NCBI GenBank assembly: GCA_965368975.1
Contig: CBDUPA010000024.1
Coordinates: 16,790-80,789 of the forward strand
Length of the DNA: 64,000 bases
From: an uncultured bacterium
Lineage (GTDB): Bacteria > Acidobacteriota > Thermoanaerobaculia > Multivoradales > JAHZIX01
Reading direction: 5' to 3'
The position numbers and the translations under genes were made by a program. Position 1 is the stretch's first letter; every line of letters begins with the position of its first letter. Below, one piece after another: positions 8,353 to 57,079 of this stretch. Under the pieces are notes generated by a model. It was not told where the DNA came from. It was given only the letters and a program-made list of their open reading frames with translations, and made no database searches.

Positions 8353-9750
8353 ATGCGCGTCTGTTTCACCAACCTCGGCTGCAAGCTCAACCAGGCGGAG
8401 CTGGAGAAGATGGCGCGGCAGTTTCATGCCGCCGGCCACCAAGTCGTAGCGACGCTCGACCGTGCCGACCTGCACGTCATCAACACCTGCACCGTCACCC
8501 ACATGGCCGCCCGTGGCTCGCGCAAGCTCGCGCGCCGCGGCAGCCGCCACCATCCGGGCCTGCGCACCGTGCTCACCGGTTGCTATGTGAGCGAGCAGCC
8601 GGAGCAAGCCGCCGAATTGGCCGGCGTCGACCTGGTGGTGCCCAACGACGTCAAGGATGAACTCTTGGCGCGCGTTCACGCCGCCTTCCCGGACGAGGTC
8701 CCCGAGCAGCTGCACGGGCACCTGCAGGGACGTCCCGGCGACCTGCCCTACCTGCCCGAAGTCGCAGGCACCTGGGGGCCGCTCGAGTTCGGCAACACGC
8801 GCGGCCTGGTGAAGGTCGAGGACGGCTGCAACATGCGCTGCTCCTTCTGCATCATCCCGTTCACTCGCGGACGCCAGCACAGCCGTCCGTTGACCGACTG
8901 TGTTGCCGAAGTGCAGGCGCTGGCCGAAGGTGGCTACCAGGAAGTCGTCGTCACTGGCGTCCAGATCTCCTCCTACCGCACCCCCGAGGGTGAACGCCTC
9001 TACGACCTCGTGCACGCCCTGCTCGCCGACACCGACATCCCGCGCCTGCGCCTGACCTCCATCGCCCCCTGGCAGCTCGACCGTCGATTGCTGCGCCTCT
9101 GGTCCGAAGCCGGCAGCGCGCGTGGCGGTCGCCAGGGGACAAGCCACCACGGAGCAAGCCACCAGGGGACGAGCCACAGGGGCACCCGACTGTGCCGTCA
9201 CGTCCACTTCTCCCTGCAGAGCGGCAGCACCGAAACCCTGCATCGCATGCGCCGCCCCTACACGGCCGAGCAGTACGCCGACCTGCTGGCCGAAGTGCGC
9301 GACGCCGTCCCCGGCATGGCCGTCACTACCGACGTCATCGTCGGTTTCCCGGGCGAGACCGACGCGGAGTTCGATGACAACCTCGCCTTCACCCAGCGCA
9401 TGGTCTTCGCCAAGGTCCACGCCTTCCCCTACTCCAGCCGCCCCGGCACCCTCGCCGCCAACCTGCCGGACCACGTCGAGCACAGCGTCAAGCGCGAACG
9501 CATGGCCCGCATGTTGGCGGTCACCGAGGCTGCGGAAGAAGACTTCCGCCGTGCCCAGTTGGGGCAAACAGCGGAAGTGTTGTGGGAGGGAGCGAGAGAG
9601 GGAGTGTGGCAGGGGATGACCGACAACTACCTGCGTGTCTTTACTGAGAGTAGCGAGGATCTGGGGAATCGTCTGCTGCCGGTGCAGCTGGAAGAGATGG
9701 TCGATGGGGGCGTCAAGGGACGGGTGCTCAGCGGTAGACGAGCTGCGTAG
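8353..9750 (+). CDS. Radical-SAM methylthiotransferase of the MiaB/RimO/MtaB family (MtaB-like), with an unusual low-complexity insertion
   Basis: N-terminal MTTase domain (MRVCFTNLGCKLNQAELE), radical SAM CxxxCxxC (GCNMRCSFCIIPFTRG), the HVHFSLQSGS motif, and a C-terminal TRAM-like region. The opposite-strand ORF 8137..9960 (607 aa) is an antisense artefact. A 25-30 aa Gly/Ser/His-rich insert (GSARGGRQGTSHHGASHQGTSHRGT) is encoded by three 15-nt tandem repeats at 9121..9195. Confidence 0.8.
   Translation: MRVCFTNLGCKLNQAELEKMARQFHAAGHQVVATLDRADLHVINTCTVTHMAARGSRKLARRGSRHHPGLRTVLTGCYVSEQPEQAAELAGVDLVVPNDVKDELLARVHAAFPDEVPEQLHGHLQGRPGDLPYLPEVAGTWGPLEFGNTRGLVKVEDGCNMRCSFCIIPFTRGRQHSRPLTDCVAEVQALAEGGYQEVVVTGVQISSYRTPEGERLYDLVHALLADTDIPRLRLTSIAPWQLDRRLLRLWSEAGSARGGRQGTSHHGASHQGTSHRGTRLCRHVHFSLQSGSTETLHRMRRPYTAEQYADLLAEVRDAVPGMAVTTDVIVGFPGETDAEFDDNLAFTQRMVFAKVHAFPYSSRPGTLAANLPDHVEHSVKRERMARMLAVTEAAEEDFRRAQLGQTAEVLWEGAREGVWQGMTDNYLRVFTESSEDLGNRLLPVQLEEMVDGGVKGRVLSGRRAA
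9121..9195 (+). repeat. Three tandem 15-nt repeats inside the MTTase gene encoding a Gly/Ser/His insertion
   Basis: Units of about 15 nt (aagccaccacggagc / aagccaccaggggac / gagccacaggggcac) seen directly in the sequence. They are in frame and produce GTSHHGASHQGTSHRG. Confidence 0.6.
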
Positions 9751-11581
9751 CTTTGGGTAAGGGTGGCGGCGCGTCGGGCTGGGCGAGCAGCATGTAGGCG
9801 AGCCACGCCGTGCCGCCCTTGCGCGCCACCACCCAGCGTGCGATACGTAGGGCACGAGCGACTGTCCGGCCGCCGGCGATGGCCCGGTAGAAGACGCGGG
9901 CCAAGATGGCCGCTTGACTATCCGGAACTTCCCAGCGAGTGCCGATGAAAGCGGCGGCACCGACCTCGAGGAAGCGCTCGGCGAAGCCGACGTCCCGGGT
10001 CAGGGCGAGGCCGGCTTGCCCGGACTTGCAACCGTTGAGGAAGACTAGGGGGTGACCGAGGCCCAGATCTCCGGCGCTACCGTTGAGGTCGACAGGGGTA
10101 AACTCTTCGCTGGCTTCCAGATGTAAGGCGTTGCGCAGCGGGTTAGTACTGGAAGCGGTCGCATGACCAGCGTAGTGAATGAGGTGGAAGTCGCCTCTCG
10201 ACAGGGCGCTGGTCACCGCGTTGCGGCGCGCCACCACGTGCTGCCACTCGGGAGGATCTGCCAGGCCAAAAGATGCGGGTGTCAGGCGTGAGGCTTCCGG
10301 AAGCTTCGAGTCACCGGGCACGATGAGCAGAGCCTTGCGCCAGCGCGCTAGTTTGTAGGCCTGGGCCTTGGAGTGCCAGCGCGTCACCTCGAAGCGTTCA
10401 CACAGCATGCCGAAGACTTCCACTCGACCCTGTGCATTCTTGCTCTGCAAGGTGCAAAGTTCCCAGGGGACCCAGCTCTCGTCCGAGTGAATGTGCAGCG
10501 TCCGAATGTGATTACGGTGCTGCCATAGGAGGGCCTGGATTTCTGCCGGGAGCAGTTGATCGGTCAACTCGAAGCCCAGGTTGCGCAGATGCTGGCGAGA
10601 CGGTTGCTTCAAGTCTTGCAGGTCCCGCAACAGTGGCCTCAGGAACTCCTGCGGATCTTGAGTCAACCACAAGGGCTCGGAGGCTTCGAAGTGAAATCCG
10701 ATTGGCTGCGAGTGAGCGCGGACCACCCAGCCTTGACGTCCGTGTCGCCAGGTCCGACGAATGATCAGGTCGATGTCGGGTGCTGCGTTGCGCAGGCCGT
10801 CGAGATCTACGGACGACAAGGTTGCATTGTGCGTAGAGTGGCTTGCCGCCCGCATCTGCTTCGGCTCCGCCGTTACCTCCACCCTCAGCGTCAACTTGCC
10901 CAGTGCTTGACCCTCGTGAAAGGCATAGATCAGGACCTTCGTGTTTCCGGTCTTCACGGCTCTGATCTTGAATTGCTCTGCGGGGGAATCTTTATCGGCA
11001 TCGAAGATCAGAGTTGCCTCCCGCCGTTTGCCCCGCTCCAGTCCCGGTTCGACCTCGATCACTACGTCGACCTCGGCGCCCGGTGGCAAGTAGATCGGCA
11101 TGGCGTCGAAGGCGTAGACGACCTCGGGTGTGAGGTAGACGAGGAGAGATGCAGTGTCACCGAGAACAAGCTGCTGCGGGAATTTCGCGTGCAGCGAGCC
11201 CGACACCCTCCCGCCGCTGCGCGCGCTGCGCGTCGGCCCCAGGGACCGCAGCTCGGGCGCGAGAAAGCCATAGACCTCACCGTCGTCATCGAGCACAACG
11301 CAAGTCTCGAGGGCCTGCTCGATCGGCAGGTTCCACGAGACCTGTTCTACTGCCTGTAGCTGGCCGAGTTGCAGCGCCTGCGCCAGTGGCTCATCAGTGT
11401 CGAGACGCAGGTGGCGCAGTGTCCGCCGGCTGAGCAGGTAGTAGAGCGCTCCGTGCTCGTCCTGCCGGCGCACGAGGACGTGGGTGAAGTCGACCTCTAC
11501 CAGCCACTGCCCCAGACGCCGAGCCAGTTCGTCGGCGTCCAGGAGCAGGAAGCTGTGGTGCGCGGCTGTGCGTAGGGTCAT
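9728..11581 (-). CDS. CHAT-domain (caspase-fold, clan CD) putative peptidase, cytoplasmic, with about 330 aa N-terminal region of unknown function
   Basis: C-terminal half carries the CHAT catalytic dyad context: HLIHYAGHATASS (His), VFLNGCKSGQAG (Cys), then AAFIGTRWEVPD. Start ATG overlaps the stop of the upstream gene (ATGA). Convergent 23-bp overlap with the MTTase gene. Confidence 0.7.
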   Translation of the reverse strand: MTLRTAAHHSFLLLDADELARRLGQWLVEVDFTHVLVRRQDEHGALYYLLSRRTLRHLRLDTDEPLAQALQLGQLQAVEQVSWNLPIEQALETCVVLDDDGEVYGFLAPELRSLGPTRSARSGGRVSGSLHAKFPQQLVLGDTASLLVYLTPEVVYAFDAMPIYLPPGAEVDVVIEVEPGLERGKRREATLIFDADKDSPAEQFKIRAVKTGNTKVLIYAFHEGQALGKLTLRVEVTAEPKQMRAASHSTHNATLSSVDLDGLRNAAPDIDLIIRRTWRHGRQGWVVRAHSQPIGFHFEASEPLWLTQDPQEFLRPLLRDLQDLKQPSRQHLRNLGFELTDQLLPAEIQALLWQHRNHIRTLHIHSDESWVPWELCTLQSKNAQGRVEVFGMLCERFEVTRWHSKAQAYKLARWRKALLIVPGDSKLPEASRLTPASFGLADPPEWQHVVARRNAVTSALSRGDFHLIHYAGHATASSTNPLRNALHLEASEEFTPVDLNGSAGDLGLGHPLVFLNGCKSGQAGLALTRDVGFAERFLEVGAAAFIGTRWEVPDSQAAILARVFYRAIAGGRTVARALRIARWVVARKGGTAWLAYMLLAQPDAPPPLPKATQLVYR

Positions 11582-13197
11582 GGCTCGAGGTCAGGTGAAC
11601 CTGAAAGCGGCACTGTCTGATGGTAGCCCGCTCGCTTCAGATGTCCGCCAAGCAACCGGGTCGCCGGATCGCCCAGTAGTACGAAGTTGCGCGCGTCGTT
11701 GTTGGCCAGCCACAGCGCGTTCTCATCACGCGCAACCAATTGGGTGTTGCGGTTGGGGTCGATCTCGGCGTTGAGCATCGTGGAAAGCTGAGAGTGACGC
11801 GAGTTCAGCCATTCCATGGCGTAGCCGGTGGTGTAGCCCATCATCAGGGAACGCAACACGGCTTCGTAAGTGATCAGCTCACTGCTTTCGCCGAGGAACG
11901 AGAATGAGGTCTCCCAGGCGCGATCGACGTGGCCGATGAAGGCGGTCGCACCGTTGGCGAGCAGCTCTTGTGGCAGCTTGGCCAGGAAGGGCTCTTCGGC
12001 GCTGAAGTCGGTGCCGTGGCGGTTCTGCTGTCGGAAGTGGTCATAGTTCGGGGTGCCGGCGCCGAAGCAGCTGAACTGGAAGAACACCCGTCCCAGCAAC
12101 TCCATGTCTCGGCTGAGATCGCCGGCATGGAAGCACTGTCCCACTTCGGGTGGGTGACCGAGGCCGGGCCAATCCTGGCACAGCAAGGCACCTTGCTGGC
12201 TTTGCTGCAAGGGGTGGCTGCGCGGGTAGGCGAGACCATGCCCACCGAGGAAAGTACAAGCGGAGTTGCTGCTGCCAGCGAGCAATGACGCAAGTTGCTG
12301 CTTAGAAGCCTGATCCCCGAGGTAGCGGTGAATTTCCCACGCTTCCGGGATCTTCTCCAGGCGTTGGATGAGCGGAAGGATCAACTCCGCTTGCATCAAC
12401 TGAGTCGCCACGTCACGGGGGTTGCGAGCGGCAAAAAAGTCAATTCCCGGTTCGAGAGGACACCGTTGCTGTTCCGCACGCACGATGTTCTGCGCGTAGC
12501 GGGCGTAGTCCTCGATATCGTCGAAGTGCAGTCGGCCGACGGCATATTGGACGTCGAGTTCGAACTGTAGCTGATAGGGAATTTCGGCTGGACTTCCGAC
12601 CAGTAGGATGAAGTAGGGCAGAGTCTCGGCATCCGGCGGACCCAAGCCGACGCCGACACGGCGCAGGAACTGGAAGGTCGATTCTCCTGGGCGGTAGCCG
12701 TCCGGCCCACTCCAGATCTTGTAGCGCTTTCCAGCTTCGTCTTCTCGATGGTCCAGCAGGCGCCGGAGCTTGTGCTCGATCTTGGGATCAGCATGTTGAG
12801 GGATGACCACGGCCCAGCCCGCTTCGTCCAGCCGCTGGTGGTTCACCCACGGCACGGGTGCACGCCTGGGCTCTAGCTTGGTGAGACGGTGTATCCGCTC
12901 GACCCAGCGCCGGATCCAGTCCAGGATCGTCTTATCTTTGGGTGGGGGAGTGCCGAAGCGGGCAGCATGAATCTCGTCCCAGCTCAAGGGGGGAGCCAAG
13001 TACTCGCCACACCGGGCGTCGATGCCATTGAGATAGACCCACTCGCCGGGGGGAGGGAAGTCGAGATACGCAGCTTGCGGGTCTTCGCCTTCCCCCTTCG
13101 GGGTCTCTTCGATTGAGCCGGGATCTTCGCGCCAACGTTTGCGCCACGTTGGGAGGACCGATCGAAACTCCTTCTCTGACGGTTCCTGCATCATCGC
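11578..13197 (-). CDS. CHAT-like caspase-fold putative peptidase (divergent paralogue), cytoplasmic
   Basis: Has the His-Gly ... Cys arrangement typical of clan CD peptidases (FLGGHGLAYP ... FFQFSCFGAGTP), followed by the same post-Cys AFIGHVDRAW element seen in the two flanking CHAT proteins. Preferred start is the ATG pair at about 13194-13197 with RBS GGAGAGG 9-12 nt upstream; the TTG ORF start at 13212 is an over-extension. That ATG overlaps the upstream stop (ATGA), and the 11578-11581 stop/start overlap with the next gene is a second ATGA. Confidence 0.6.
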   Translation of the reverse strand, partial: AMMQEPSEKEFRSVLPTWRKRWREDPGSIEETPKGEGEDPQAAYLDFPPPGEWVYLNGIDARCGEYLAPPLSWDEIHAARFGTPPPKDKTILDWIRRWVERIHRLTKLEPRRAPVPWVNHQRLDEAGWAVVIPQHADPKIEHKLRRLLDHREDEAGKRYKIWSGPDGYRPGESTFQFLRRVGVGLGPPDAETLPYFILLVGSPAEIPYQLQFELDVQYAVGRLHFDDIEDYARYAQNIVRAEQQRCPLEPGIDFFAARNPRDVATQLMQAELILPLIQRLEKIPEAWEIHRYLGDQASKQQLASLLAGSSNSACTFLGGHGLAYPRSHPLQQSQQGALLCQDWPGLGHPPEVGQCFHAGDLSRDMELLGRVFFQFSCFGAGTPNYDHFRQQNRHGTDFSAEEPFLAKLPQELLANGATAFIGHVDRAWETSFSFLGESSELITYEAVLRSLMMGYTTGYAMEWLNSRHSQLSTMLNAEIDPNRNTQLVARDENALWLANNDARNFVLLGDPATRLLGGHLKRAGYHQTVPLSGSPDLEP

Positions 13198-16100
13198 GTT
13201 TTTCCTCTCCAATCGCCGAGGTGGATAAAGCCCGCCCAGTGTGACACTGGCATGCCGTTCTCAATCAGCTGCTTCTGCGCTGCCCGCAGCGCTGCGGCGG
13301 GGCGCAGGCCCTGCTGGTACATGCCGCTGTAGAAGCGCGTCATCAAGTCTGCTGTGGCGTTGTCATCGACCTTCCACACACTCACCACCAGACGCGGTGC
13401 GCCGGCAACCAGGAAGGCGTGTGCCAGGCTCTGGACGCCTTCGCCGCGTAGCTCTCTGCCCTGGCCCGTATCGCATGCGCTGAGCACCACCAAGTCTGCT
13501 CGCAACCGAAGGCGGGCGATCCGCTGGACATAAAGGTAGCCGTCCTGGGCTTCGCCTTGTTCGTTCCACAGCGACAACACCAGTCCGGAGAGTTCCGGAT
13601 GCTGGTTGTGTACTAGGCCGTGCGTAGCGAAGTGCAGGATCCGGAAGTCGTCTAGCTGAACTCGGTCGAGGGTGGTTCGGCTGGCTGTAAAGCCCAGAGC
13701 CGAGAACGCGGGCCGGTCCCCGATCAGCGCGAGTATGGCTTCTGCCTCGCGCCGGGTACCAGGTAGGCGCGGCAAAGTGACGCGCCCATCGCTCAAGGCC
13801 CCGCGCAGGCGTTCACTCGGGATGTCTAGCTTTGTCGCAGTGTTACCGTTCCGTGGGTCGCTGGAGGAGTACACCGCGTCGGCGAGCAAGAACAAGTCCT
13901 GAGAAGGGGTCGTACGCTGCTCCAGGATGGGTTGTAGTGCGGCGAGGACGGTCACTGATGGAACCTGGACTACTTCGTAATCCTGGATCAGGAAGTTGCT
14001 TCCGCCACCAGGGGCGCGGAGGGCAGCGAAGGGGAGAGCGTGTAGCGGCCCGTCTGCACTGATCACCAAGCGAGATTTTGGCGCCCAGCGCGCTAGCGGG
14101 CCGAGCAGGATCGTGCTGAGGTCGGCTTCCAATGCTCCCGCGGTAGTTGCGCCCTGACTCCAAGCATCGTGCAGTCGACGAACCTTCTGTTCCAACTCGG
14201 AGCGAGGTGGTAACCGAGCGTGTTGGAATTGGTGGTCGTCGATGTACCAAAGGTGACTTTGGTTTTCTCCAAGCTGATAGCTGACGAGGGCGGTGTCTTC
14301 GTTGAGCCAGTCTGCGCGTAGCTGTTGCAGTGTCAGAGAAGGTGGGTCGTTGAGATTCCGATAGTGGCGGCTGTCGACGCGGATCTCTGCATCGAGCATC
14401 TTGTACTGGTGCTGGACGGCGGTCAGTTGCGTCTCGATGGCCTCACGCTGCTCGGCAGGTACCTGCGGGCGCATCGTCCTCAAGCGTCGCTCCTGGAGCT
14501 CGTCGATCTCGGTCTCCAGGTCGCGCAGCCGGGCCAGAGTTGCCGGGGCGACATCGCTGTAGAGATCGACGTGCTGTTCCTGGAGCTGGTCGAGAAGGAG
14601 ACGGGCCTTGGCACGGTCGGAGGCCTGCCAGGCGAGAACGCTGTAGTCCGGCAAGTCCGGACCGCTTTCGGCGATTACCACTGCTTCGGCCTCGAGTCGG
14701 ATTCGATCGTCCATCGGAGGAGACGGTTGACCGAGTTCCGCCAAGACCTCGACGTGGAGCTCGTGGTAATGGTGCTTGATCGCCTGGAGCTCGCCGCGCA
14801 GCTGGCGATTCGGGTGTTGCTGGCGCAGTTGCTCCGTGAGTCCTAGGGCGCGCTCGATGTGATGGAGTGCCGTCTGGAGGTCACGCTGCTGGCGTTGAAC
14901 CCAAGCGAGGCCGAAGTGGCAGGATGCTTGGACTTGAAGGATTTTTTGCTCTTCGGCGAGTTTCAGGGCCGAGTCGAAATGGGCAATCGACCCTTCGAGG
15001 TCGCCGGTCAAGCCGAGCGTTCGGCCCAGGTTGGCTCGAGCCAAGGCGATTCCAGGTGGAAATTTCGCCTTCTCAGCCAGTTCGACGGCCTGTTGGAGGT
15101 ACCGAACGCTTTCGTCGTAGCCACCGAAGCGTCGGTACAGCTGGCCCAGGCTGTTGAGCGCCTGCAGCTGACCAGCAACCAGCCCATGCTGGCTGAAGAA
15201 ATCCAGGGCCTGGCGATGGCTGGCTGCGGCGGTGCGCAGGTTGTTTCCCGCTTCTGCCAGGCGGGCGCGCGCTAGGATCACCTCGTCGCGAAGGGTAGGA
15301 GGCAAGCTCTCCAGGTCGGCGATAGGGTCGAGTAGATGGGCCGCATCGTCTGCCAGGTTGAGGGTCAGGTAGACGTTGGCGGCGCGAACGCGCAGGCGGA
15401 TCTCCATCTCCCGCCTCGCCGGCTGCATTTCGGCTCGTGCGAGGGCGTCGAGATAGAGGCGCAAGGCCTGTTCCTGCTCGCCGAAGAGTTCGCGTACCTG
15501 CCCCTCGTTCTGCAGGGCAGCCGCAAGGCCGGCTTCATCTTGGTGCTGGGTCGCAAGCTGGCCGGCCTGTTGGAAGTGCGCGATGGCGGTGGTCGCATCT
15601 CCGGCCTTGCGCAGTGCCTCACCGAGATCGTTGTGGATGGTCACGAGCCAGATCTCACCCTCTGTGCCCAACTCTTCGAAGTGACCGCGTGCTGCCTCCA
15701 GTGGCACCAGGGCGGCCCCGCTCTGGTTGGCTCGCAGCAGTGCCTTTCCTTGCGCGCGCAAACTGAAGGCCAACCAGTCGCGCACCTGCAATTGCTGCCA
15801 GAGTTCGGCGGCAACGGCGAACTCGCTGGCTGCGACTAGATGATCGGTAGCTCGAAGCAGGCGTCCACGCGCGTAAGCCCTCTCGGCGTCCTGCTGTTGA
15901 TGATGAACAGGGCCAACCGGGCTTTCGATTCGCAACGTGATCCGGCAGGTTCCGCTGCTGACTGCCGTCGAGGCGATGCGCAGTTGACGGCGGATCGTCT
16001 GTGCCCCATGGTGAACCACAGACAGCCTCTCGGTGCCACGGATGCTGGTCGGACGGTCCACCTCGATCTCGACGTTGCCCTCGGCATCGAGCAATCGGAG

Positions 16101-16352
16101 CGCGACATCTACTCCTTGTTGTTCCGCCTCGATTTGACCAAAGGTGTTCGGTGGTAGGTCGAATTCGAAGTCCTGCCTGTCTTCGGCTGCGAAAGCAGTC
16201 GTAACAGGGGTGTCGGGAAGCAGCAGCATAGACTCCTCCGAAAGGGAACGCGAAGAGTGGTCTCCAGGCACACCTGGAACAATGCTGGCCAACGCTAGGA
16301 ACAGACCGCCCGCCAGCTGCGAGAACGAAAACCGAATCGGGAATACACGCAT
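13191..16352 (-). CDS. Large TPR-repeat + CHAT-domain protein (about 1010-1050 aa)
   Basis: Many TPR-like repeats across residues about 170-560, coiled-coil rich in the middle. C-terminal CHAT domain with FRILHFATHGL (His) and LVVLSACDTGQG (Cys), then AFLVAGAPRLVVSVWKVDD. The alternative start ATG at 16232 has a strong RBS (GGAGGAG, 5 nt spacer) and would remove the signal-peptide-like first 40 residues. The ORF start at 16352 has no RBS. Confidence 0.75.
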   Translation of the reverse strand: MRVFPIRFSFSQLAGGLFLALASIVPGVPGDHSSRSLSEESMLLLPDTPVTTAFAAEDRQDFEFDLPPNTFGQIEAEQQGVDVALRLLDAEGNVEIEVDRPTSIRGTERLSVVHHGAQTIRRQLRIASTAVSSGTCRITLRIESPVGPVHHQQQDAERAYARGRLLRATDHLVAASEFAVAAELWQQLQVRDWLAFSLRAQGKALLRANQSGAALVPLEAARGHFEELGTEGEIWLVTIHNDLGEALRKAGDATTAIAHFQQAGQLATQHQDEAGLAAALQNEGQVRELFGEQEQALRLYLDALARAEMQPARREMEIRLRVRAANVYLTLNLADDAAHLLDPIADLESLPPTLRDEVILARARLAEAGNNLRTAAASHRQALDFFSQHGLVAGQLQALNSLGQLYRRFGGYDESVRYLQQAVELAEKAKFPPGIALARANLGRTLGLTGDLEGSIAHFDSALKLAEEQKILQVQASCHFGLAWVQRQQRDLQTALHHIERALGLTEQLRQQHPNRQLRGELQAIKHHYHELHVEVLAELGQPSPPMDDRIRLEAEAVVIAESGPDLPDYSVLAWQASDRAKARLLLDQLQEQHVDLYSDVAPATLARLRDLETEIDELQERRLRTMRPQVPAEQREAIETQLTAVQHQYKMLDAEIRVDSRHYRNLNDPPSLTLQQLRADWLNEDTALVSYQLGENQSHLWYIDDHQFQHARLPPRSELEQKVRRLHDAWSQGATTAGALEADLSTILLGPLARWAPKSRLVISADGPLHALPFAALRAPGGGSNFLIQDYEVVQVPSVTVLAALQPILEQRTTPSQDLFLLADAVYSSSDPRNGNTATKLDIPSERLRGALSDGRVTLPRLPGTRREAEAILALIGDRPAFSALGFTASRTTLDRVQLDDFRILHFATHGLVHNQHPELSGLVLSLWNEQGEAQDGYLYVQRIARLRLRADLVVLSACDTGQGRELRGEGVQSLAHAFLVAGAPRLVVSVWKVDDNATADLMTRFYSGMYQQGLRPAAALRAAQKQLIENGMPVSHWAGFIHLGDWRGKTR

Positions 16353-16412
16353 CGCTAGACTACGCGAGATCGGCGTCCGAAAGAGACCAGACCCGGCATG
16401 CCCCCCTCGTGT

Positions 16413-17470
16413 TCAGGATCTAGGCGGAGTCGGCTCGACCCCTGGTGGCAGCAGTCGTATCCGTAGGTCCAGAGGTTCCGGTTCGCCGGAGAGTCGCAGG
16501 CGCAGCAGACCATCGTCTTGCAACAGCGACCGAGGGAGGTTGACGTTGAGCTGGTCGTTCTTGGGCCAGTGCTCAGCAAGACTCAAGAGAACTGTGCCGT
16601 CTGCAGCAAGGAGCTGTAACTCTAGGGTTGGGGCCACGGTGGGCAGAATCGGCAGCTCGATGTTGACGGAGGCCACCGGCCTGCTGCTGTGCGGAACCTG
16701 GACCTCACCGATCTCTGCGCGCTGACCCGCAAAGCGCGCGATCGTCTCCGGTTGGATGCTGACAGCCTGGTATTCCCCCAACTCCCGCTGCGCTCCCCAC
16801 CATCCCCATCCCACCCCCACCAACGCCACGGCCAGCACCGCCGCCAACGCCCGCAGCCACACCGGGGACGTCGGTGTCCGGCGCGCTGCCAGGTTGACGA
16901 CGTTGTCGACGCGACCAGCGCCTCCGCCGCCAGCCGTGTGCGCGGCTAGAGCCGTCAGGGCGGGGCGAATGGCCTCTTGGATCCAGTCCTGGTACAGGGG
17001 ATCGAAATCGTCGTCTTCCTGGCGTGCCGAGGGGTCCAAGGTGCCGGATTCGAAGGCTTCGTGCACTTCGACGGCTCGTCGAAGCAAGGCTGCCGGCAAC
17101 TGGCCGACACAGTGAGCATCGGCCAGGGCCGGGGTGCGGGCCTCGGTTTCGGCGAGGAAGGCACAGCGGAGCGTGAGGGGGCCGGGGAAGAAATCGGCCG
17201 GAACGCGCAGGTCGCTGATTCCAGTCCACTCCCGGTCGTCTGCTGGAATCAGGGTCAGCGCTTGGTCCTGCGTTTTCAAGACCAGCCACCAGAGCGCCGC
17301 TTCGCAGGTCGGAAGGACCAGCAGGTCTCCCGGCTGCAGGGTGGCGCCGTGCCGCTGTGCCGGGCGGCTGAGCCGCAGTGCAGCCTCGCCGGTCTGCAGA
17401 CGCAGACGCTCTCGACGCTCAGCGGCGTAAGGGCTCGAGGGGGGTAGGCCTCCTTGCTTCAAACTCGTCT
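16413..17470 (-). CDS. Single-pass membrane protein, putative anti-sigma factor for the upstream ECF-like sigma
   Basis: Lies immediately downstream of the sigma-like gene on the same strand. Predicted cytoplasmic N-domain, one TM helix (VWLRALAAVLAVALVGVGWGWWG) and a periplasmic C-domain. The start is uncertain: the first 70 codons of the ORF overlap the sigma gene, so I placed it near the TTG after the sigma stop. No family-level homology recognised. Confidence 0.4.
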
Positions 17471-17476
17471 CCCCGG

Positions 17477-18592
17477 TCAGTTGGGTGGCTCTCGCCGGCA
17501 GCCTTGGAGTAGCCGTCCGAGAGTGGCGTAGAGCTCCGCCAGCCGGTCGCGGGGGATGTCGAGCAATTCCGACACCTTGCGCCGCGACGGGAAGTCGTCG
17601 AGATCTTCCAGGCTGGCGGTGCGGCCATTCGGCAGTCTCAGCTCTCCGGCGGTACTCTCGGCACTGAACACACACAGGAAGCGCCAAAGGCGGTGTAGGT
17701 AGTCCAGGGTGCGGTGGCGAGCAGGCAGGTTGTCGATGGCGTCCTCGACGCAGCGTACCAGGGCGCGGAAGACGTTGTGGGCTTCGAAGTCGCAGGCCTC
17801 TGGCTGGACTTGGCGCAGGATCTGACCCAGGTCACTGTCCGCGTGCTCCTGGGGGACCACTTCACCGGCTTCGTAGAGCAGGGTGCTCCAGTGCGAGCGC
17901 ACGTAGCGCTTGATGACGTCGAGCAGCTGCTTGACGGTGAAGCCGTGGATGCCTTCCGAGCGCAGTTGGGGCAGTTGGGAACGCAGCCTCTCGGCGACTT
18001 GCCGTCGCCGCTTGCCACGCGCGGTGATCAGGTCGGGCAGCAGGTCCTGAGCCCACACGGGCACGACCCGGTCGAGGCTCTGTTCGATGTCGGGCTCGAT
18101 GACGCCGCTGTCCGTGAAGCTGAGCCGCGTGTCGTTGCGCAGCACGCTGGTGCCGCCCAGGACGCGCAGCTGGCCGGCGTCGACAGCGCCCTTGAGCGCG
18201 GAGTGTGCCACCTCGAAGACCCGGTAGCCCAGGGGGTCGTTGGTGCGTTGACGCTCGAAGACGAAGTGCTTGATGTTGAGCCGGACGAGGCCGTCGATGT
18301 CGTCTTTGACTTCGAGCTGGTGGAGTAGCGCGTTCAGCCGATCTAGAAAGATGTAGGTATACGCATCCGCCGTCAGCTCTTCCAGCGCGTCGCCGCGCTC
18401 GCTGTGTTCATACCAGTGGCCATAGCCATGTACGCCCAGGTAGCTGGGTGGGCTTTCCCACAGTCCACGGCGATTCAGTTCGCGCTTCAGCCAGGCACGT
18501 AGGGCCTGCCAGACGAGGCGAAAAGTTTCGTTGTCGGGTGGCTCGCCCTGTGGGTCGAGCTGCCGCACGTAATCGGTAAATAGACCGTCCAA
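17477..18592 (-). CDS. Atypically long ECF-like sigma factor (371 aa) with a roughly 150-aa insertion between sigma2 and sigma4
   Basis: N-terminal region resembles ECF sigma2 (FRLVWQALRAWLKRELNRRG; DALEELTADAYTYIFLDRLNAL; LVRLNIKHFVFERQR). The C-terminus resembles sigma4 (LPARHRTLDYLHRLWRF ... SRRKVSELLDIPRDRLAELYATLGRLL). Start codon is TTG. The assignment is by motif pattern only. Confidence 0.5.
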   Translation of the reverse strand: MDGLFTDYVRQLDPQGEPPDNETFRLVWQALRAWLKRELNRRGLWESPPSYLGVHGYGHWYEHSERGDALEELTADAYTYIFLDRLNALLHQLEVKDDIDGLVRLNIKHFVFERQRTNDPLGYRVFEVAHSALKGAVDAGQLRVLGGTSVLRNDTRLSFTDSGVIEPDIEQSLDRVVPVWAQDLLPDLITARGKRRRQVAERLRSQLPQLRSEGIHGFTVKQLLDVIKRYVRSHWSTLLYEAGEVVPQEHADSDLGQILRQVQPEACDFEAHNVFRALVRCVEDAIDNLPARHRTLDYLHRLWRFLCVFSAESTAGELRLPNGRTASLEDLDDFPSRRKVSELLDIPRDRLAELYATLGRLLQGCRREPPN

Positions 18593-18821
18593 ATGAACTC
18601 CCTCCGAACAAGGGCTCCCCGCAGGGATCCTACAGCATCCCGCGTCGACGAAATTCTTTTCCTCCGTTTCCGGCCAAAGTTGATTGTTAGTGCGTTAGGC
18701 AGGGGTGAGTCGAAAAAATAGATTGACTCGCGTTTCGAAGTTCAGAAGCAGTGCCTGAGGCCCGTGAATAAGGGGCTTTGGGGAAAATTACAGAGGTTCT
18801 CTGTTAACCGGAGGTTTGTCA

Positions 18822-25609: not shown

Positions 25610-25903
25610 TCACTGTCCCCGCGTCGCTTTCCACCTCGCCCGCAGCTCGGCGTGCAGCCGGCTCTGGAACTCGATGGGGATCTCGTAGACCTCGTTCTCT
25701 TTGTACAGGCGGATCGTCTTGCGGATGTTGTCCACCACCACCTGGCACGGGTTGCAGCCTTCCAAATGCGCTTCCAGGTCGTCGCAGACAGCGGGATCGA
25801 TGTCGCCGTCGACATAGTCGTTGAGCGCGCGCAGTAGGTCGTCACACTTCATCGTTGTTCCCTGGATCTTGCAGGCCGGCCGATCGAGTTTGTTGATGCT
25901 CAT
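25610..25903 (-). CDS. Zinc-finger (ZAS-type, HxxxCxxC) anti-sigma factor
   Basis: MSINKLDRPACKIQGTTMKCDDLLRALNDYVDGDIDPAVCDDLEAHLEGCNPCQ has the ZAS H-x3-C-x2-C motif. ATG at 25903 with GGAG 9 nt upstream. Overlaps the 3' end of the ECF sigma gene. The ORF start at 26011 is an over-extension. Confidence 0.6.
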   Translation of the reverse strand: MSINKLDRPACKIQGTTMKCDDLLRALNDYVDGDIDPAVCDDLEAHLEGCNPCQVVVDNIRKTIRLYKENEVYEIPIEFQSRLHAELRARWKATRGQ

Positions 25904-26579
25904 GGCCGTCTCCGTCATGCTGATCCGACTCGTCGTGCTTATGGGGCAGGAGTCGAGTGGACGGATCGCCGAAGCGGCGGGTGAGGATCTCGCGCAGGGC
26001 CAGGCGGGCACGCAGCAGGCGTACTTTGACGTTGCCCTCGGTGATGCCCAGGATCGATGCGGTCTCCTTGACGCTCAACTCGCGTACGTCGCGCAGCAGG
26101 AAGATGATGCGGTAAGACTCGGGCAACTCGGCGGCGGCCTGTTCGAGGAACGTGCGCACCTGGGAGCGCTGTGCCAGCTCGGACGGGTCCTGGCTCCAGT
26201 CGGCGATGTACTCTGGGTGCGGGATGCTGCCTTCGCTGTTCGGCTCGGTGGCGGCGTCGAGAGAGACGGTGGGCAGTCCCTTGCGCTTGCGGATCACCTT
26301 CAGCGCGGTATGGGTGGTGATACGTGTGATCCAGGTGGCAAAGGAGGCTTCTTCGCGGAAGCCGTCGAGGTGTTCCAGGGCGTTGAGCAAGGCTGTCTGG
26401 ACGGCCTCCTCGGCGTCTGGTGGGTTGCGCAGCAGGGTCATCGCCAGGGCGTACAGCCTGCGCTCGTGACGCCGGACCAGGGTGTCGAAGGCCTCGAAGT
26501 CGCCGGCCTTGGCCTGCTGGACGAGGACTTCGTCGGTCACTTCTGGGGCGGAGGGTGGAGTGGGGGGCGACGTGTTCAT
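25842..26579 (-). CDS. RNA polymerase ECF-family sigma factor (sigma-24-like) with His/Asp-rich C-terminal tail
   Basis: sigma2 (FEAFDTLVRRHERRLYALAMTLL...AEEAVQTALLNALEHLDGF...FATWITRITTHTALKVIRKR) and sigma4 (LPESYRIIFLLRDVRELSVKETASILGITEGNVKVRLLRARLAL). C-terminal HKHDESDQHDGDGHEH. Confidence 0.8.
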   Translation of the reverse strand: MNTSPPTPPSAPEVTDEVLVQQAKAGDFEAFDTLVRRHERRLYALAMTLLRNPPDAEEAVQTALLNALEHLDGFREEASFATWITRITTHTALKVIRKRKGLPTVSLDAATEPNSEGSIPHPEYIADWSQDPSELAQRSQVRTFLEQAAAELPESYRIIFLLRDVRELSVKETASILGITEGNVKVRLLRARLALREILTRRFGDPSTRLLPHKHDESDQHDGDGHEHQQTRSAGLQDPGNNDEV

Positions 26580-26602
26580 GCGCCCCTGAGCCTACCGCAG
26601 CT

Positions 26603-29600
26603 TTACTCCTCATCACCGGCCTCCTCGGGATCGGGTTCGCTCTGTATCTTGGGTGCGGGCATCTCGCGTGCCACCTCGCTCTTCTCGAGCATGGCGTAGA
26701 TCAGCGGCACGACGACCAGCGTCAAGGCGGTCGAGGCCAGGGTGCCGGTCATCAGGGAGATGGCGAGGCCCTGGAAGATGGGGTCGAAGAGGATGACGAA
26801 AGCACCCACGACGACGGTACCGGCCGTCAGCAGGATGGGGCGCAGACGCACGGCGCCGGCTTCGAGCAGGGCGTCGTGGAGGCCGCGGCCGCGGTCGAGG
26901 GCGAGGTGGACGAAATCGATCAGCAGCACGGAGTTGCGCACCATGATGCCGGCCAGGGCGATGAAGCCGATCATCGAGGTGGCGGTGAAGAAGGCGCCGA
27001 ACAGCCAGTGTCCGGGCAGGATACCTACCAGGCTCAGGGGGATGGCGACCATCATGACGACCGGCGTGCGGAAGGAGCCGAACCAGCCGATCAGCAGCAG
27101 GTAGATGAGCACCAGCACCGCGCCGAAGGCGGCGCCGAGGTCGCGGAAGACCTCGTAGGTGATCTGCCACTCGCCGTCCCACTTGAGGCTCGGCTGCTCC
27201 TCGGACAGTGGCTGTGCGGTGTACAGCTGCGCGACCTGCGAGCCGTCCGGTGCGTGCAGCTCTTCGACCTGCTTGGCGAGGTCGAGCATGGCGTAGACCG
27301 GGCTCTCGACCTCCACCGCGACGTCAGCGGTGACGTAGACCACCGGCTGCAGATTCTTGCGGTAGCGGCTGGGCGGTGCCGGGCTGTCGTCAACGGTGAC
27401 CAGGTCGGCCAGTGGCACCAGGGCGCCGGTGCTGGGTGAGGCGATGCGCAGCTGGCGCAGTTGATCGAGACCGGCGCGCTGGGCTCGCGGCAGCTCGAGG
27501 CGTAGCGGCACGGCGGCTGTCTCACGCGGGTCGTGCAGGCTGCCGGCGTCGAGGGCGCCGAAGGCGAGGCTCAGCATGCCGGCGATCTGCGCCGGGCTGA
27601 TGCCGTGCAGCGCCGCCTTCTGACGGTCGACGCCGAAGCGCAGGCGCGGCTGCGGGTCTTCGACCATCCAGTCGACGTCGACCACGCCCGGCGTCTGCTC
27701 GAACAGCTCGCGCACCTGCTCGGCCAGCGCCAGGCGGCTGTCCATGTCGGGGCCGTAGACCTCCGCCACCAGGGTCGACAGCACCGGCGGTCCTGGCGGC
27801 ACCTCGACCACCTTGACGCGGGCGCCGTGCCGTTCGGCGATGGCTTCTAGCGGCGGCCGCAGGCGCTTGGCGATGTCGTGGCTCTGCTCGTCTCGGTGTT
27901 CCTTGTGCACCAGGTTGACCTGGATGTCGGACAGGTTGCTGCCCTGACGCAGGTCGTAGTAGCGCACCAGGCCGTTGAAGTTGATCGGTGCCGCGGTGCC
28001 GGTGTAGAGCTGCAGGTGGGTGACCTCGGGCACGGTGCGCAGGTAGTCGGCCGCCTCGCGGGTCACGCGTGCGGTGGTCTCGAGCGTTGTGCCCTCGGGC
28101 AGGTCGAAGAGGACTTGTAGCTCGCTCTTGTTGTCGAATGGCAGCATCTTGACAGTCACCAGCTGCAGCGGGAAGAGAGCCAGTGACGCCAGCAGCAGCA
28201 GCCCGACGACGCCAAGAGTGGCCCAGCGCAGCAGAGGACGCTCGAGCAGCGGACCGAGGATGCGTCGGTAGAGGCGGTAGGTGCGCGTGTTGCGGATGCC
28301 CGCGCCTTCGTCGGCCTCTCCCTGCAGATGCCCCTCCTCCTGCAGATGACCCGTCGCGCGCAGCAGGCGGTAGCCGAACCACGGTGCGGCGATCAGCGCG
28401 ACGCCGAGCGAGAACAGCATGGCCAGTGAGGCGCCGATCGGCATCGGTCGCATGTACGGGCCCATCAGGCCGCGCACGAAAGCCATCGGCAGCACCGAGC
28501 CGATAACCGTCAGGGTCGCCAGAATGGTCGGGTTGCCGACCTCGTTGACCGCTTCGATGGCGGTGCGCAGGCGGCTCTTGCGGTCGCTGCCGCGCTCCTG
28601 TGCCAGGTGGCGCACGATGTTCTCGACCACGATGATCGAGTCATCGACCACGATGCCGGTGACGAAGACCAGGGCGAAGAGGGTGACACGGTTGAGCGTG
28701 TAGCCGAAGGCGTAGTAGACGAAGAGGGTGAGCGCGAAGGAGATCGGTACCGAGATCAGCACCACCAGCGCGCCGCGCCAGCCGAGGGCGAAGCCAATGA
28801 CGATGGTGACCGCCAGGATGGCGAGCGTCAGGTGCATCAGCAGCTCGTCGGCCTTCTCGGTGGCCGTAGCGCCGTAGTTGCGGCTCACCGTCAGCTCGAC
28901 GCCGGGCGGCAGCAGGTGCGCTTCTAGCACTTCGAGCTTGGCGTTCACCTGGTCGACCACGTGTTGCGCGTCGGCGCCCTGACGCTTGGCCAGGGCCAGG
29001 GTCACGGCCGGATGCGGCACGGAAGCCGCGCCCTCACCCTGGACGGGCACGTGTTCGACGTAGCTAGTCGCGTCGGCCGGACCGTCGAGGATCGTGGCGA
29101 TATCTTGCAGGTAGATGGGCTGGAGCCCTGAGTGGACGCCGACCACCAGCCGGCGCAGTTCGTCGGCATCGGTCAGGAAGGCACCGGTCTCGACCAGCAC
29201 TTCCTGGTTGCCGGACTCGAAGCGACCGGCCGGGCCCCCCGCGTTCTGACGGCGCAGAGCGCTGGCGATCTGCAGGGGGTCGAGGCCGAAGCCCGCCAGG
29301 CGGCTGGCGTCGAGCTGCACGCGGAGGGTGCGGGTCTGGCCGCCGTGCAGGCGAATGTCGGACACGTCCGGCAGCTTGCTCAGCTCCGTCGCCAGCTCGC
29401 TGGCCAGCCGCCGCAGCTGGTAGCCGTCGTAGCTGCTACCACGATAATTGCCTCCACTGTAATCGTCGCCACTGGGGCCATCAACGTCGCTGGCCCACAG
29501 CGTCAGCGTGTAGACGGGGACGTCGTCGATGGTGCGGTGCTTGATCAGTGGTGGCGTGGCGCCGTCCGGCATGCGGTCGAGGCCCGAGGTGACCTTCTCG

Positions 29601-29959
29601 TAGACACGCACCAGCGCGCGCTCGGGGTCGTCGCCGACGTGGAAGCGAGCGGTGACGACGGCGCCGTGCGCGCGCGCCGCCGAGTAGACGTACTCGACGC
29701 CCGGAATCTCCCACAGGCGCTTCTCGAGCGGGATGACCAGCCGGTTCTCGACCTCCTCGGGCGTTGCGCCGGGCAGGCCGAGGTAGAGGTCGACGATCGG
29801 CACCACGATCTGTGGCTCCTCTTCGCGCGGCGTCAGCTCGATGGCGGCGACGCCGAGCAGCAGCGCGGCGAGCACCAGCAGCGGTGTCAACTTGGAGTCG
29901 ATGAAGAAACTGCCCAAGCGGCCCGCGGGGCCCAGGTGAGAGGTGTCAGGATGACGCAC
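26603..29959 (-). CDS. RND-family efflux transporter permease (AcrB/HAE1-like, about 1118 aa)
   Basis: 12-TM RND architecture and the conserved TM4 motif VVDDSIIVVENI. GTG start with RBS AAGGAG 9-10 nt upstream, 6 nt after the MFP stop. Confidence 0.85.
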   Translation of the reverse strand: MRHPDTSHLGPAGRLGSFFIDSKLTPLLVLAALLLGVAAIELTPREEEPQIVVPIVDLYLGLPGATPEEVENRLVIPLEKRLWEIPGVEYVYSAARAHGAVVTARFHVGDDPERALVRVYEKVTSGLDRMPDGATPPLIKHRTIDDVPVYTLTLWASDVDGPSGDDYSGGNYRGSSYDGYQLRRLASELATELSKLPDVSDIRLHGGQTRTLRVQLDASRLAGFGLDPLQIASALRRQNAGGPAGRFESGNQEVLVETGAFLTDADELRRLVVGVHSGLQPIYLQDIATILDGPADATSYVEHVPVQGEGAASVPHPAVTLALAKRQGADAQHVVDQVNAKLEVLEAHLLPPGVELTVSRNYGATATEKADELLMHLTLAILAVTIVIGFALGWRGALVVLISVPISFALTLFVYYAFGYTLNRVTLFALVFVTGIVVDDSIIVVENIVRHLAQERGSDRKSRLRTAIEAVNEVGNPTILATLTVIGSVLPMAFVRGLMGPYMRPMPIGASLAMLFSLGVALIAAPWFGYRLLRATGHLQEEGHLQGEADEGAGIRNTRTYRLYRRILGPLLERPLLRWATLGVVGLLLLASLALFPLQLVTVKMLPFDNKSELQVLFDLPEGTTLETTARVTREAADYLRTVPEVTHLQLYTGTAAPINFNGLVRYYDLRQGSNLSDIQVNLVHKEHRDEQSHDIAKRLRPPLEAIAERHGARVKVVEVPPGPPVLSTLVAEVYGPDMDSRLALAEQVRELFEQTPGVVDVDWMVEDPQPRLRFGVDRQKAALHGISPAQIAGMLSLAFGALDAGSLHDPRETAAVPLRLELPRAQRAGLDQLRQLRIASPSTGALVPLADLVTVDDSPAPPSRYRKNLQPVVYVTADVAVEVESPVYAMLDLAKQVEELHAPDGSQVAQLYTAQPLSEEQPSLKWDGEWQITYEVFRDLGAAFGAVLVLIYLLLIGWFGSFRTPVVMMVAIPLSLVGILPGHWLFGAFFTATSMIGFIALAGIMVRNSVLLIDFVHLALDRGRGLHDALLEAGAVRLRPILLTAGTVVVGAFVILFDPIFQGLAISLMTGTLASTALTLVVVPLIYAMLEKSEVAREMPAPKIQSEPDPEEAGDEE

Positions 29960-29964
29960 GGCGC

Positions 29965-56315: not shown

Positions 56316-56324
56316 TGAATATGT

Positions 56325-56999
56325 CTAGTGATCTAGGTTCTCTGTTGCCCAGGAGGTGCAGGTGCCGCAAGCGGTTCTCACAGATGCTGCACAAATATAG
56401 ACCTCTTGACAACGAACACAACAGACGCTCCTCTCAGATCGCTTCCAATGTTGCGCGCTTTGGACTTGGGTCATGAAGCTACCTTCACCTTCCCGGAGTT
56501 GGATAGAGAGTTCAATATCGAGAAGTGAGTCGAATACTATTCTCCCTTCCAGGATCCTTTGGAAGGGGGCAATGACCGCGGCTTCGCCCGAGGGGTGAGC
56601 AAGTTGTTGTAGTGGAGTCCAAGTTCCGATTTCTATTTCCTGCCTGCTGCCAACCGACATATAGCCTTCAGCTCCCGTCTTAGAAACCAGTCCAAGCTTG
56701 GCAGAGACCTTTGCCGAACCCCCAGAGTTACGTTCGAACAGCACGACTCCAATCTGGTAGTTTGGATCAGATCCAGGGTCAATTATCAATACTGTGCTGT
56801 CAATGATCTCAAATTCGATCTCCAGCATTCCTGGCAAGTCTAGTCTTCCAGAGATCAATCTGTCTTGCTCCGCTAGGTGCCGGTAAGTGGGCAAGGTGTC
56901 TTGGGCTGAAAGGCTGTCAGGTAAGAAGACAAGCGACATGGCTAGAATGGCTTTTGCAACGCTGTTGCCTGTGATTGCGGTGGCCTTGTTCTTGGACAT
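56325..56999 (-). CDS. Hypothetical secreted protein (about 224 aa) on the low-GC island
   Basis: ATG at 56999 gives the signal peptide MSKNKATAITGNSVAKAILAMSLVFLPDSLSAQD; the ORF start at 57098 is an over-extension. The Cys-rich extreme C-terminus (CCVRCQEVYICAASVRTACGTC) is compositionally odd and may reflect a frame problem. Confidence 0.4.
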   Translation of the reverse strand: MSKNKATAITGNSVAKAILAMSLVFLPDSLSAQDTLPTYRHLAEQDRLISGRLDLPGMLEIEFEIIDSTVLIIDPGSDPNYQIGVVLFERNSGGSAKVSAKLGLVSKTGAEGYMSVGSRQEIEIGTWTPLQQLAHPSGEAAVIAPFQRILEGRIVFDSLLDIELSIQLREGEGSFMTQVQSAQHWKRSERSVCCVRCQEVYICAASVRTACGTCTSWATENLDH

Positions 57000-57079
57000 T
57001 GCCTTCTCTTTCTGCCAAGGGTGTGAGCAGTGTAGTTTTGGTGGTGAAGCTTGCCCTTTGGAGCTAAAACCAAAGTGGT

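Follow-up and report, generated by a model that had tools for sequence, protein, structure and literature searches.

What could be the role of an operon that places two proteins of unannotated families ahead of three caspase-like proteases? The question is raised by a 64,000-nucleotide (nt) stretch of contig CBDUPA010000024.1 (positions 16,790 to 80,789 of the forward strand, assembly GCA_965368975.1) from an uncultured acidobacterium of the class Thermoanaerobaculia. In this stretch, referred to below as the window, five co-directional minus-strand open reading frames (ORFs), here called P1 to P5, span positions 9728-18592. A first-pass annotation, made from the letters alone, had described them as an extracytoplasmic function (ECF)-like sigma factor, a protein in anti-sigma position and three CHAT protease paralogues serving as transcriptional output. 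The analysis reported here points in another direction: the operon may be a trans-envelope signalling module working by regulated proteolysis, a reading to which we would give a probability of roughly 0.45, and the exported protease P3 looks more like signal input acting on P2 than like output. The five genes are the following.

17477-18592, minus strand: P1, ORF of 371 amino acids (aa)
16413-17462, minus strand: P2, ORF of 349 aa with a TTG start
13191-16352, minus strand: P3, ORF of 1053 aa
11578-13194, minus strand: P4, ORF of 538 aa
9728-11581, minus strand: P5, ORF of 617 aa

The positions and the tight spacing of these genes were confirmed as first annotated, with gaps of 14 nt between P1 and P2 and of 60 nt between P2 and P3. 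The overlaps reported for the two junctions between the protease genes proved to be genuine ATGA overlaps when read directly (13194-13191 for P3/P4 and 11581-11578 for P4/P5), and P4 and P5 are translationally coupled to P3. The start of P2 is an in-frame TTG at 17462 with a ribosome-binding site (GGGGAG) ahead of it; a longer TTG-initiated ORF would overlap P1 by 210 nt, and the public protein collection contains an identical 349-aa protein. Likewise, with the ATG at 13194 as start codon, P4 has 538 aa and agrees fully with a protein of that collection. Terminator-like hairpins inside the operon show no excess over chance.

The first two genes of the operon represent an obligate pair: in about 69 modules, P2 comes directly after P1 with hardly an exception. 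The P1 family comprises 861 representatives at 50% identity, as retrieved by an exhaustive profile search. Among the best 150 of these, 43 are 677-833 aa long, and 42 of the 43 prove in alignments to be P1-P2 fusions in a single chain, certain residues of their P2 part being invariant; the remaining one, P0121 (742 aa), is a P1-P1 tandem and not a P1-P2 fusion. P0121 is at the same time the best-scoring representative of the family, with a Gly/Asp-rich linker between its two P1-like halves. Neither the P1 nor the P2 family contains a Pfam domain, P2 itself matches no Pfam or NCBIfam family, and the named homologues of both are all listed as 'hypothetical protein'. No relatives of P1 were found on viral contigs, and a literature check of narrow extent returned no paper on either family. 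A word-indexed search with P2 yielded 2 homologous proteins, and the P2 homologues considered here were taken from the genome loci described below and from the fusion proteins. The predicted parts of P2 are these.

17052-17336, minus strand: cytoplasmic MazF/CcdB-like domain of P2 (aa ~43-137), from the model of a homologue
16791-16862, minus strand: transmembrane helix of P2 (aa 201-224), the one helix predicted
aa ~225-349 of P2, minus strand: periplasmic domain, from the predicted topology

A model of one P1-P2 fusion calculated with AlphaFold2 (AF2; predicted local distance difference test, pLDDT, 86; predicted template modelling score, pTM, 0.65) consists, in this order, of the P1 part, a disordered linker, a helix, a seven-stranded beta domain with a C-terminal helix, further helices and, at the C-terminal end, a transmembrane helix followed by an eight-stranded periplasmic beta-sandwich. 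Residues 33-173 of the window P2 align to the cytoplasmic beta domain of this model (36% identity, E 4e-14). The MazF/CcdB-like match presumably belongs to that domain, because no other part of the model combines strands with a helix. P2 is clearly a membrane-bound partner of P1, and it shares the functional hallmarks of an anti-sigma factor in being encoded directly downstream, in spanning the membrane once and in occurring naturally fused to P1. A natural fusion of a sigma and an anti-sigma factor is known from IutY of P. putida (PMC5411451).

The first-pass annotation had further proposed three clan-CD proteases with His/Cys dyads, which is borne out by the conservation of these residues in homologues from related loci (33/33 and 32/33 for CHAT, 13/13 for P4 and 6/6 for P5). 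Their recognisable parts are listed here.

~14814-15833, minus strand: TPR repeats of P3 (Pfam TPR families)
13212-14123, minus strand: CHAT domain of P3 (Pfam, E 6.6e-63, 213 bits)
13620-13622 and 13473-13475, minus strand: dyad His911 and Cys960 of P3, from invariance in homologues
12238-12240 and 12067-12069, minus strand: dyad His319 and Cys376 of P4, from invariance in homologues
11273-11557, minus strand: TCAD7 domain of P5 (Pfam, E 2e-5, 25.2 bits against a cut-off of 24 bits)
9821-10234, minus strand: CHAT domain of P5 (Pfam, E 6.5e-22, 78.7 bits)
10163-10165 and 10028-10030, minus strand: dyad His473 and Cys518 of P5, from invariance in homologues

The notion of three CHAT paralogues has to be corrected to two CHAT proteins, P3 and P5, and one C25 peptidase, P4. 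The CHAT cores of P3 and P5 (Pfam PF12770, cut-off 24 bits) are 29% identical (E 2e-6), and P5 also matches the Pfam C25 family (E 1.5e-5). P4 shows no CHAT profile match and no pairwise similarity to P5. Its score with Pfam Peptidase_C25 is 19.8 bits, under the cut-off of 23 bits; it has 2443 homologues, and PF01364 is present in most of those that are ~40% identical across 86% of the length. Several homologues are named 'C25 family cysteine peptidase', and some contain an N-terminal TIR fusion. An alignment of P4 with the CHAT family by hhalign (P 0.0025) superimposes the motifs around His (GGHG/ATHG) and Cys (FSCFGAG/LSACDTG). As judged from its sequence, P4 should be regarded as a predicted clan-CD protease with a caspase-like core that belongs to the Peptidase_C25 (gingipain-type) family and not to CHAT.

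The proteases appear to be distributed over two compartments. P3 starts with a signal-peptide-like segment followed by a conserved N-domain, and most of 33 long TPR-CHAT ORFs from related loci open with either a Sec signal or a lipobox (for example L-A-G-C), while 5 of the 33 lack a strong hydrophobic segment. Because of this signal-like N-terminus and the export signals of most homologues, P3 is predicted to be extracytoplasmic, which would place it in the same compartment as the outer domain of P2. A signal sequence is absent from P4 and its homologues, and P4 and P5 are therefore expected in the cytoplasm. C25 genes of the P4 type also occur outside the present loci: in Anabaena cylindrica (L071/L072, 7001-13622) they adjoin genes of giant CHAT-nSTAND1-WD40 proteins, and in a metagenome-assembled genome (MAG) of the Chloroflexota (L073, 385-8440) such a gene adjoins CHAT-SIR2 and nSTAND1-WD40 genes. 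Since this adjacency recurs in both, C25 and CHAT form a wider partnership, which is typical of conflict systems.

In other genomes, the neighbourhood of P1-P2 contains a recurring set of partner genes. A set of 67 genome loci, found with a 12-sequence alignment, derives nearly entirely from MAGs of Thermoanaerobaculia or other Acidobacteriota, several genomes containing more than one copy. Both flanks are available for 40 modules; 28 of these have a CHAT gene within 7 kb, 26 a canonical ECF sigma gene nearby, and none lacks both. The recurring layouts are P1-P2-TPR-CHAT-C25, with or without an ECF sigma or P5-like gene, P1-P2-TPR-CHAT beside a divergent ECF sigma gene, P1-P2-ECF-kinase and P1-P2-P5-like. 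The order P1-P2-TPR-CHAT-C25 is found in about 10 loci, and the complete five-gene order recurs in the close relative L070 and in the distant locus L040, where P1 is 36% identical. All five linked ECF sigmas that were checked against Pfam match PF07638, and in the three loci scanned the gene following the PF07638 sigma codes for a Ser/Thr kinase that is about 860 aa long and contains TPR arrays. In all three kinases (L013 13068-15674, L009 13012-15579, L027 9790-12366), a transmembrane helix stands right after the kinase domain and ahead of the TPR array, which is therefore predicted to be periplasmic. We infer as a common denominator that each set of partners contains a periplasmic TPR-array protein joined either to a CHAT protease or to a kinase.

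A second line of evidence is the uneven divergence of the operon between the window and L070, as apparent from the amino acid identities between corresponding parts.

Divergent upstream gene: 88% identity
P1: 92% identity
P2, aa 1-251: 69% identity
P2, periplasmic domain: no detectable similarity, unalignable
P3: 36% identity
P4: 51% identity
P5, first 226 aa: 68% identity

The same gradient is seen between L036 and L060, with 70% identity for P1, ~50% for P2, ~32% for the N-terminal and TPR part of P3 and 55-62% for its CHAT core, while L019 and L025 are uniformly ~80-85% identical without any gradient. In the two pairs with a gradient, the parts predicted to lie outside the cytoplasm appear to be those that were replaced or diversified, which would fit a pair of sensor and receptor.

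The first-pass annotation was aware of no described system of this kind; the claim that none has been described is too strong in view of the DdvS/DdvA system of M. xanthus. There, an ECF sigma factor is paired with a transmembrane anti-sigma factor carrying a periplasmic TPR-CHAT part; farther downstream in the operon are an unknown gene and one for a C25-type peptidase (PMC11506125, PMC6061681). The operon of the window looks like a split and strongly diverged cousin of this system, in the sense of a functional analogy. Both start with a regulator gene followed by that of a single-pass membrane partner, both have a periplasmic TPR-CHAT part whose His/Cys dyad is intact, as well as a C25-type peptidase downstream, and the logic proposed for both is that CHAT would act as a signal-activated site-1 protease releasing the regulator. 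Unlike in DdvA, where it forms the C-terminus of the anti-sigma factor, TPR-CHAT is a separate, exported protein in the window; furthermore, P1 is not recognisable as an ECF sigma, P2 contains a MazF/CcdB-like instead of a zinc-binding anti-sigma domain, a TCAD7-CHAT gene is found in addition, neither CBASS (cyclic oligonucleotide-based antiphage signalling) nor CRISPR (clustered regularly interspaced short palindromic repeats) genes are nearby, and the host belongs to the Acidobacteriota instead of the Myxococcota. A CHAT-linked sigma/anti-sigma system has thus already been published; new are the protein families, the partner rule, the cis element described below and the contrast in rates of divergence.

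A mechanism for the signalling module may be outlined as follows. P2 would hold P1 inactive at the inner membrane, and the TPR array of P3 would sense a periplasmic, probably proteinaceous, signal that turns the CHAT domain active. Active P3 would then clip the outer domain of P2, as proposed for the built-in TPR-CHAT part of DdvA, whereupon intramembrane and cytoplasmic proteolysis would free P1. The freed P1 would act on the sequence TAAC-N16-TGGC ahead of its own operon, amounting to positive feedback, and it might have further targets as well. The other two proteases, P4 and P5, might either complete the removal of the cytoplasmic domain of P2 or represent the induced effectors of a conflict or defence response.

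The best surviving alternative, although an unlikely one, is that P1 and P2 form a sigma/anti-sigma pair answering to an unrelated envelope stress, with the proteases as a purely transcriptional output, either a cascade or a set of effectors. This would be in line with their co-transcription behind P1-P2 and a putative autoregulated promoter element, with the resemblance to effector or cascade parts of the P4-family C25 peptidases next to CHAT-STAND proteins in Anabaena and Chloroflexota, and with the presence in P5 of TCAD7, a domain named for conflict systems. It does not account for the export of P3 into the very compartment that contains the outer domain of P2, nor for the fact that these two diverge together between the window and L070 while P1 stays at 92% identity. 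Sister loci swap the protease for a kinase with a periplasmic TPR array, which suggests that the TPR protein is the input, and DdvA provides a precedent for TPR-CHAT on the sensing side.

The regulatory target assumed for P1 in the signalling module is a conserved element in the upstream region of the operon.

18673-18697, minus strand: bipartite promoter-like element TAACG-N16-TTGGC, the single match in the window

This element is located 81-105 nt upstream of the P1 start codon. In 48 of the 67 loci, the 300 nt ahead of P1 contain the pattern TAAC-N16/17-TGG[CG] in sense orientation, compared to a mean of 0.9 and a maximum of 3 in shuffled controls and to 0 on the reverse strand; its fuller consensus reads ACTAACGG-N-TTT-N-TTGGC(G/T)GGA. 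Both blocks of the element (CCTAACG and CTTTGGCCGGAAACGGAG) are identical between the window and L070, with a diverged spacer, the whole intergenic region being 83% identical. A scan of the loci with a position weight matrix (PWM) built from 31 instances finds the element almost exclusively ahead of P1 genes and not ahead of ECF genes, which points to autoregulation by the P1 system. As judged from the sequence pattern, its shape would correspond to the footprint expected of a -35/-10 type promoter instead of a symmetric operator, because its two blocks differ from each other and keep a constant distance across a spacer of unconstrained sequence. An interpretation of the TGGC block as part of a sigma-54 promoter was ruled out, as no TTGC is present at the right spacing.

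A second, inverted copy of the type TAACGG-N16-TTGGC is present at the 3' end of P1 in nine loci, directed antisense into P1 (all on the minus strand: L003 11060-11094, L006 3944-3978, L012 11090-11124, L022 5950-5984, L028 6408-6442, L029 11012-11046, L031 4460-4494, L032 11174-11208 and L033 11018-11052). It overlaps with codons that specify a conserved tail at the C-terminus of P1, CRxAxSGKxxVN, and might serve as a promoter in antisense direction or as an additional binding site. The P1 protein of the window has a shorter tail, and the inverted copy is missing there.

The MazF/CcdB-like domain of P2 and the upstream element also invite a quite different explanation, namely a toxin-antitoxin (TA)-like abortive infection system, in which the P2 domain would be a membrane-parked toxin, P1 a DNA-binding antitoxin and autorepressor, the element an operator bound by P1, and the proteases would destroy P1 or release the toxin on infection. 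This is improbable. The halves of the element are asymmetric, hence promoter-like rather than an operator for a dimer, and there is no sequence-level match of the P2 domain to MazF/PemK: in hhalign alignments with MazF, Kid and EndoA, P values of 0.06-0.09 were not significant, and sequence profiles do not place the domain in the MazF/PemK/CcdB superfamily. Compared to MazEF, Kis-Kid and CcdAB, with which it shares no sequence homology, P2 is membrane-anchored and carries a periplasmic domain, parts that would have no role in a simple TA pair, and its partner is a protein of 371 aa. The frequent covalent fusion of these partners would also be unusual for an antitoxin and its toxin.

The signalling module makes the nature of P1 a central point. 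P1 is predicted to be an all-alpha cytoplasmic protein that includes the following segment.

~17540-17587, minus strand: predicted C-terminal helix-turn-helix-like segment of P1

Its initial designation as an ECF-like sigma could not be upheld at the level of region 2 and region 4 profiles, the test named in the first-pass annotation itself: the window protein is devoid of Pfam matches, and its only NCBIfam matches are two sigma models at E 0.1-0.15. NCBIfam sigma models recur among its homologues (E 0.04-0.15), below the curated cut-off, and Sigma70_r4 is the most recurrent weak Pfam match (4 of 49 members, best E 0.015), tied with DUF6616. The weak hints include near-complete matches both to the isolated sigma2 domain of SigC (76/88 residues) and to isolated sigma4 domains of sigmaE (66/69 residues) and SigD (68/68 residues). 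If P1 is split before alignment by hhalign, the N-terminal part is assigned to sigma regions 2.2-2.4 (P 0.022) and the C-terminal part to the region 4.2 helix-turn-helix (P 0.018), with both parts in the correct order, while the middle part (aa 140-268) aligns to nothing. A profile of the fusion family searched against the sequences of the Protein Data Bank (PDB) returned no sigma factor and nothing meaningful, and PADLOC reported nothing significant for P1 and P2. Weak as they are, the structural and profile hints are mutually consistent, and we consider P1 somewhat more probably than not a very diverged protein of the sigma-70 superfamily.

Several results weigh against the proposed signalling module. 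No significant Pfam match was obtained for P1 or any of 49 homologues, the P1-family profile retrieved no sigma factor from the PDB sequences, whole-profile alignment with 41 ECF sigmas by hhalign gave P 0.07, and a Foldseek search of the PDB with the AF2 model of P1 (pLDDT 87) reached E 0.6 or worse. P2 is located outside every known anti-sigma class: its sequence contains neither an HxxxCxxC zinc motif nor a known anti-sigma domain, and we know of no MazF-like anti-sigma domain. Of the earlier assignment of P2, the single-pass membrane protein (helix at aa 201-224) has stood, and the putative anti-sigma is of no known type. The element of the window is the weakest instance, with 13 bits compared to a median of ~44 bits for the 31 instances of the PWM, and the canonical ECF sigmas that are frequent in sister loci could read it instead of P1. 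The predicted location of P3 and P4 in different compartments, despite their translational coupling, is awkward for a simple relay. Finally, the function of the DdvA CHAT part as site-1 protease is itself a hypothesis in the source paper (PMC11506125).

The frequency of canonical ECF sigmas leads to a further alternative, which we regard as slightly more improbable still than the TA-like system. P1 might imitate a sigma factor or regulate by partner switching, as in the PhyR-NepR-EcfG system, and P1-P2 would then control a PF07638 ECF sigma that reads the element. PhyR contains a degenerate sigma-like domain, and the sigma-like features of P1 are degenerate as well; moreover, the ECF sigma gene stands beside P1-P2 in 26/40 fully flanked modules, directly after P2 in 13 loci and divergent from P1 in about 10, and the Pfam-checked examples are of the PF07638 type throughout (5/5). 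On the other hand, a PF07638 sigma is missing in the vicinity of the operon in the window, in L070 and in several other protease-type loci, and the element tracks the P1 genes one-to-one and is not found ahead of the ECF genes. In addition, control of PF07638 sigmas is generally ascribed to their kinases, and they are not known to have anti-sigmas. A chance juxtaposition of five unrelated genes can be dismissed as practically refuted by the neighbourhood conservation asked for at the outset, which extends from L070 to dozens of loci, many of them distant, and is far beyond chance, as well as by the gene fusions and the translational coupling.

Beyond the signalling module as such, there is a fair chance, though well below even, that P1-P2 represents a new class of factors that are tethered to the membrane and serve in transcription initiation or regulation, with P1 as a branch of its own in the sigma-70 superfamily that is restrained by a MazF/CcdB-fold domain and released from the periplasm via interchangeable TPR-array enzymes, either a CHAT protease or a Ser/Thr kinase. 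The fast-evolving outer parts would then be receptors that serve in conflict or defence. If the model of the signalling module holds, the switching of a cytoplasmic regulator by a periplasmic TPR-CHAT protein would not be an oddity of Myxococcus but a modular principle of broader use, for which non-homologous parts can be combined. It would also imply a large unannotated family of sigma-like regulators that have a cis element to themselves, a first role for a MazF-like fold as a regulator-holding domain, and a tie to signal transduction of the widespread, uncharacterised C25-CHAT partnership. Through the sharp contrast of conserved cytoplasmic and hypervariable outer parts, the signals to which TPR-CHAT proteins respond can be approached directly.

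Other known systems share single features with the operon. The type III-E Craspase consists of gRAMP/Cas7-11 and the TPR-CHAT protein Csx29, which cleaves Csx30; the latter is linked to an RpoE-type sigma. In both cases, a TPR-CHAT protease is functionally linked to a sigma/anti-sigma-like pair, with proteolysis as the switch; unlike the Craspase locus, the window contains no CRISPR array, gRAMP or RNA guide, and the protease is exported instead of cytoplasmic. Classical regulated intramembrane proteolysis is represented by sigmaE-RseA-DegS-RseP and sigmaW-RsiW-PrsW, with which the proposed module would share a membrane-tethered regulator freed by sequential proteolysis from the periplasmic side, and fusions of regulator and tether exist. 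It differs from these in that the site-1 protease would be a caspase-like CHAT protein with a TPR sensor, the tether domain has another fold and the operon lacks a site-2 protease gene. The ECF-Ser/Thr kinase systems of the PF07638 type adjoin P1-P2 in sister loci, and the periplasmic TPR array of their kinases resembles that of P3, but the window operon has proteases in place of the sigma-kinase pair. With the CHAT/C25 conflict systems based on STAND proteins or NTPases (PMC7159879), the operon has in common the P4-family C25 peptidases beside CHAT genes, the TIR fusions and the TCAD7 domain of P5, but it contains no STAND, vWA, MoxR or GTPase component. A sigma link for CHAT is not described by Kaur et al. 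(2020; PMC7159879), and no CHAT-sigma link is mentioned in the ECF reclassification paper.

The genomic setting of the operon is that of a housekeeping region, with MtaB-like radical-SAM, deoxyhypusine-synthase-like, class II tRNA-synthetase-like and AcrB-type pump genes as flanks. The GC content of the operon is 62-63% (0.71-0.79 at third codon positions, GC3), compared to 66-68% (GC3 0.83-0.88) in the flanks, which hints at acquisition or at different constraints. As already stated in the first-pass annotation, there is no CRISPR array in the 64-kb window, and neither Rfam CRISPR repeats nor any other Rfam match was found in it. PADLOC reported just generic TPR and a weak BovA match. The vWA-MoxR-VMAP 'ternary' conflict systems are the origin of the name TCAD7; vWA, MoxR AAA+ and VMAP are all absent from the operon genes and the ten flanking genes scanned.

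Some observations concern the direct neighbours of the operon. The 3' end of P5 is overlapped convergently by 23 nt by the 3' end of the MtaB-like gene (8353-9750, plus strand). The latter contains a 15-nt tandem repeat of 3.5 copies at 9132-9182, coding for a His/Ser/Gly-rich insert, GTSHHGASHQGTSHRGT, which divides the radical-SAM domain match into two stretches. On the other side, the product of the gene divergent from P1 (18816-19925, plus strand) is 369 aa long, resembles a signal peptide at its start and contains a motif in duplicate, GGC/GC-[ST]-AHVVEDVDEYDADL. This protein has no Pfam match, is 88% identical at the same position in L070 and is absent from the other loci; its gene and P1 have a common intergenic region, which is the site of the conserved cis element. 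The sole canonical ECF sigma of the window (25842-26591, minus strand), which contains Sigma70_r2 and r4_2 and is not of the PF07638 type, is encoded directly downstream of the AcrB-type transporter gene (26603-30091) on the same strand, 7 kb from the operon, and is probably unrelated to it. More distant from the operon, a patch of low GC content (54-56% compared to ~67%) at 54945-57739 on the minus strand contains three co-directional genes, which code for proteins of 456 and 257 aa without Pfam match and for a 219-aa AbiEii-like nucleotidyltransferase toxin (E 2.3e-10). Ribosomal RNA as the cause of the low GC content at 54-58 kb was ruled out by the lack of Rfam matches, and a small TA or defence islet of acquired origin is the probable explanation of the patch.

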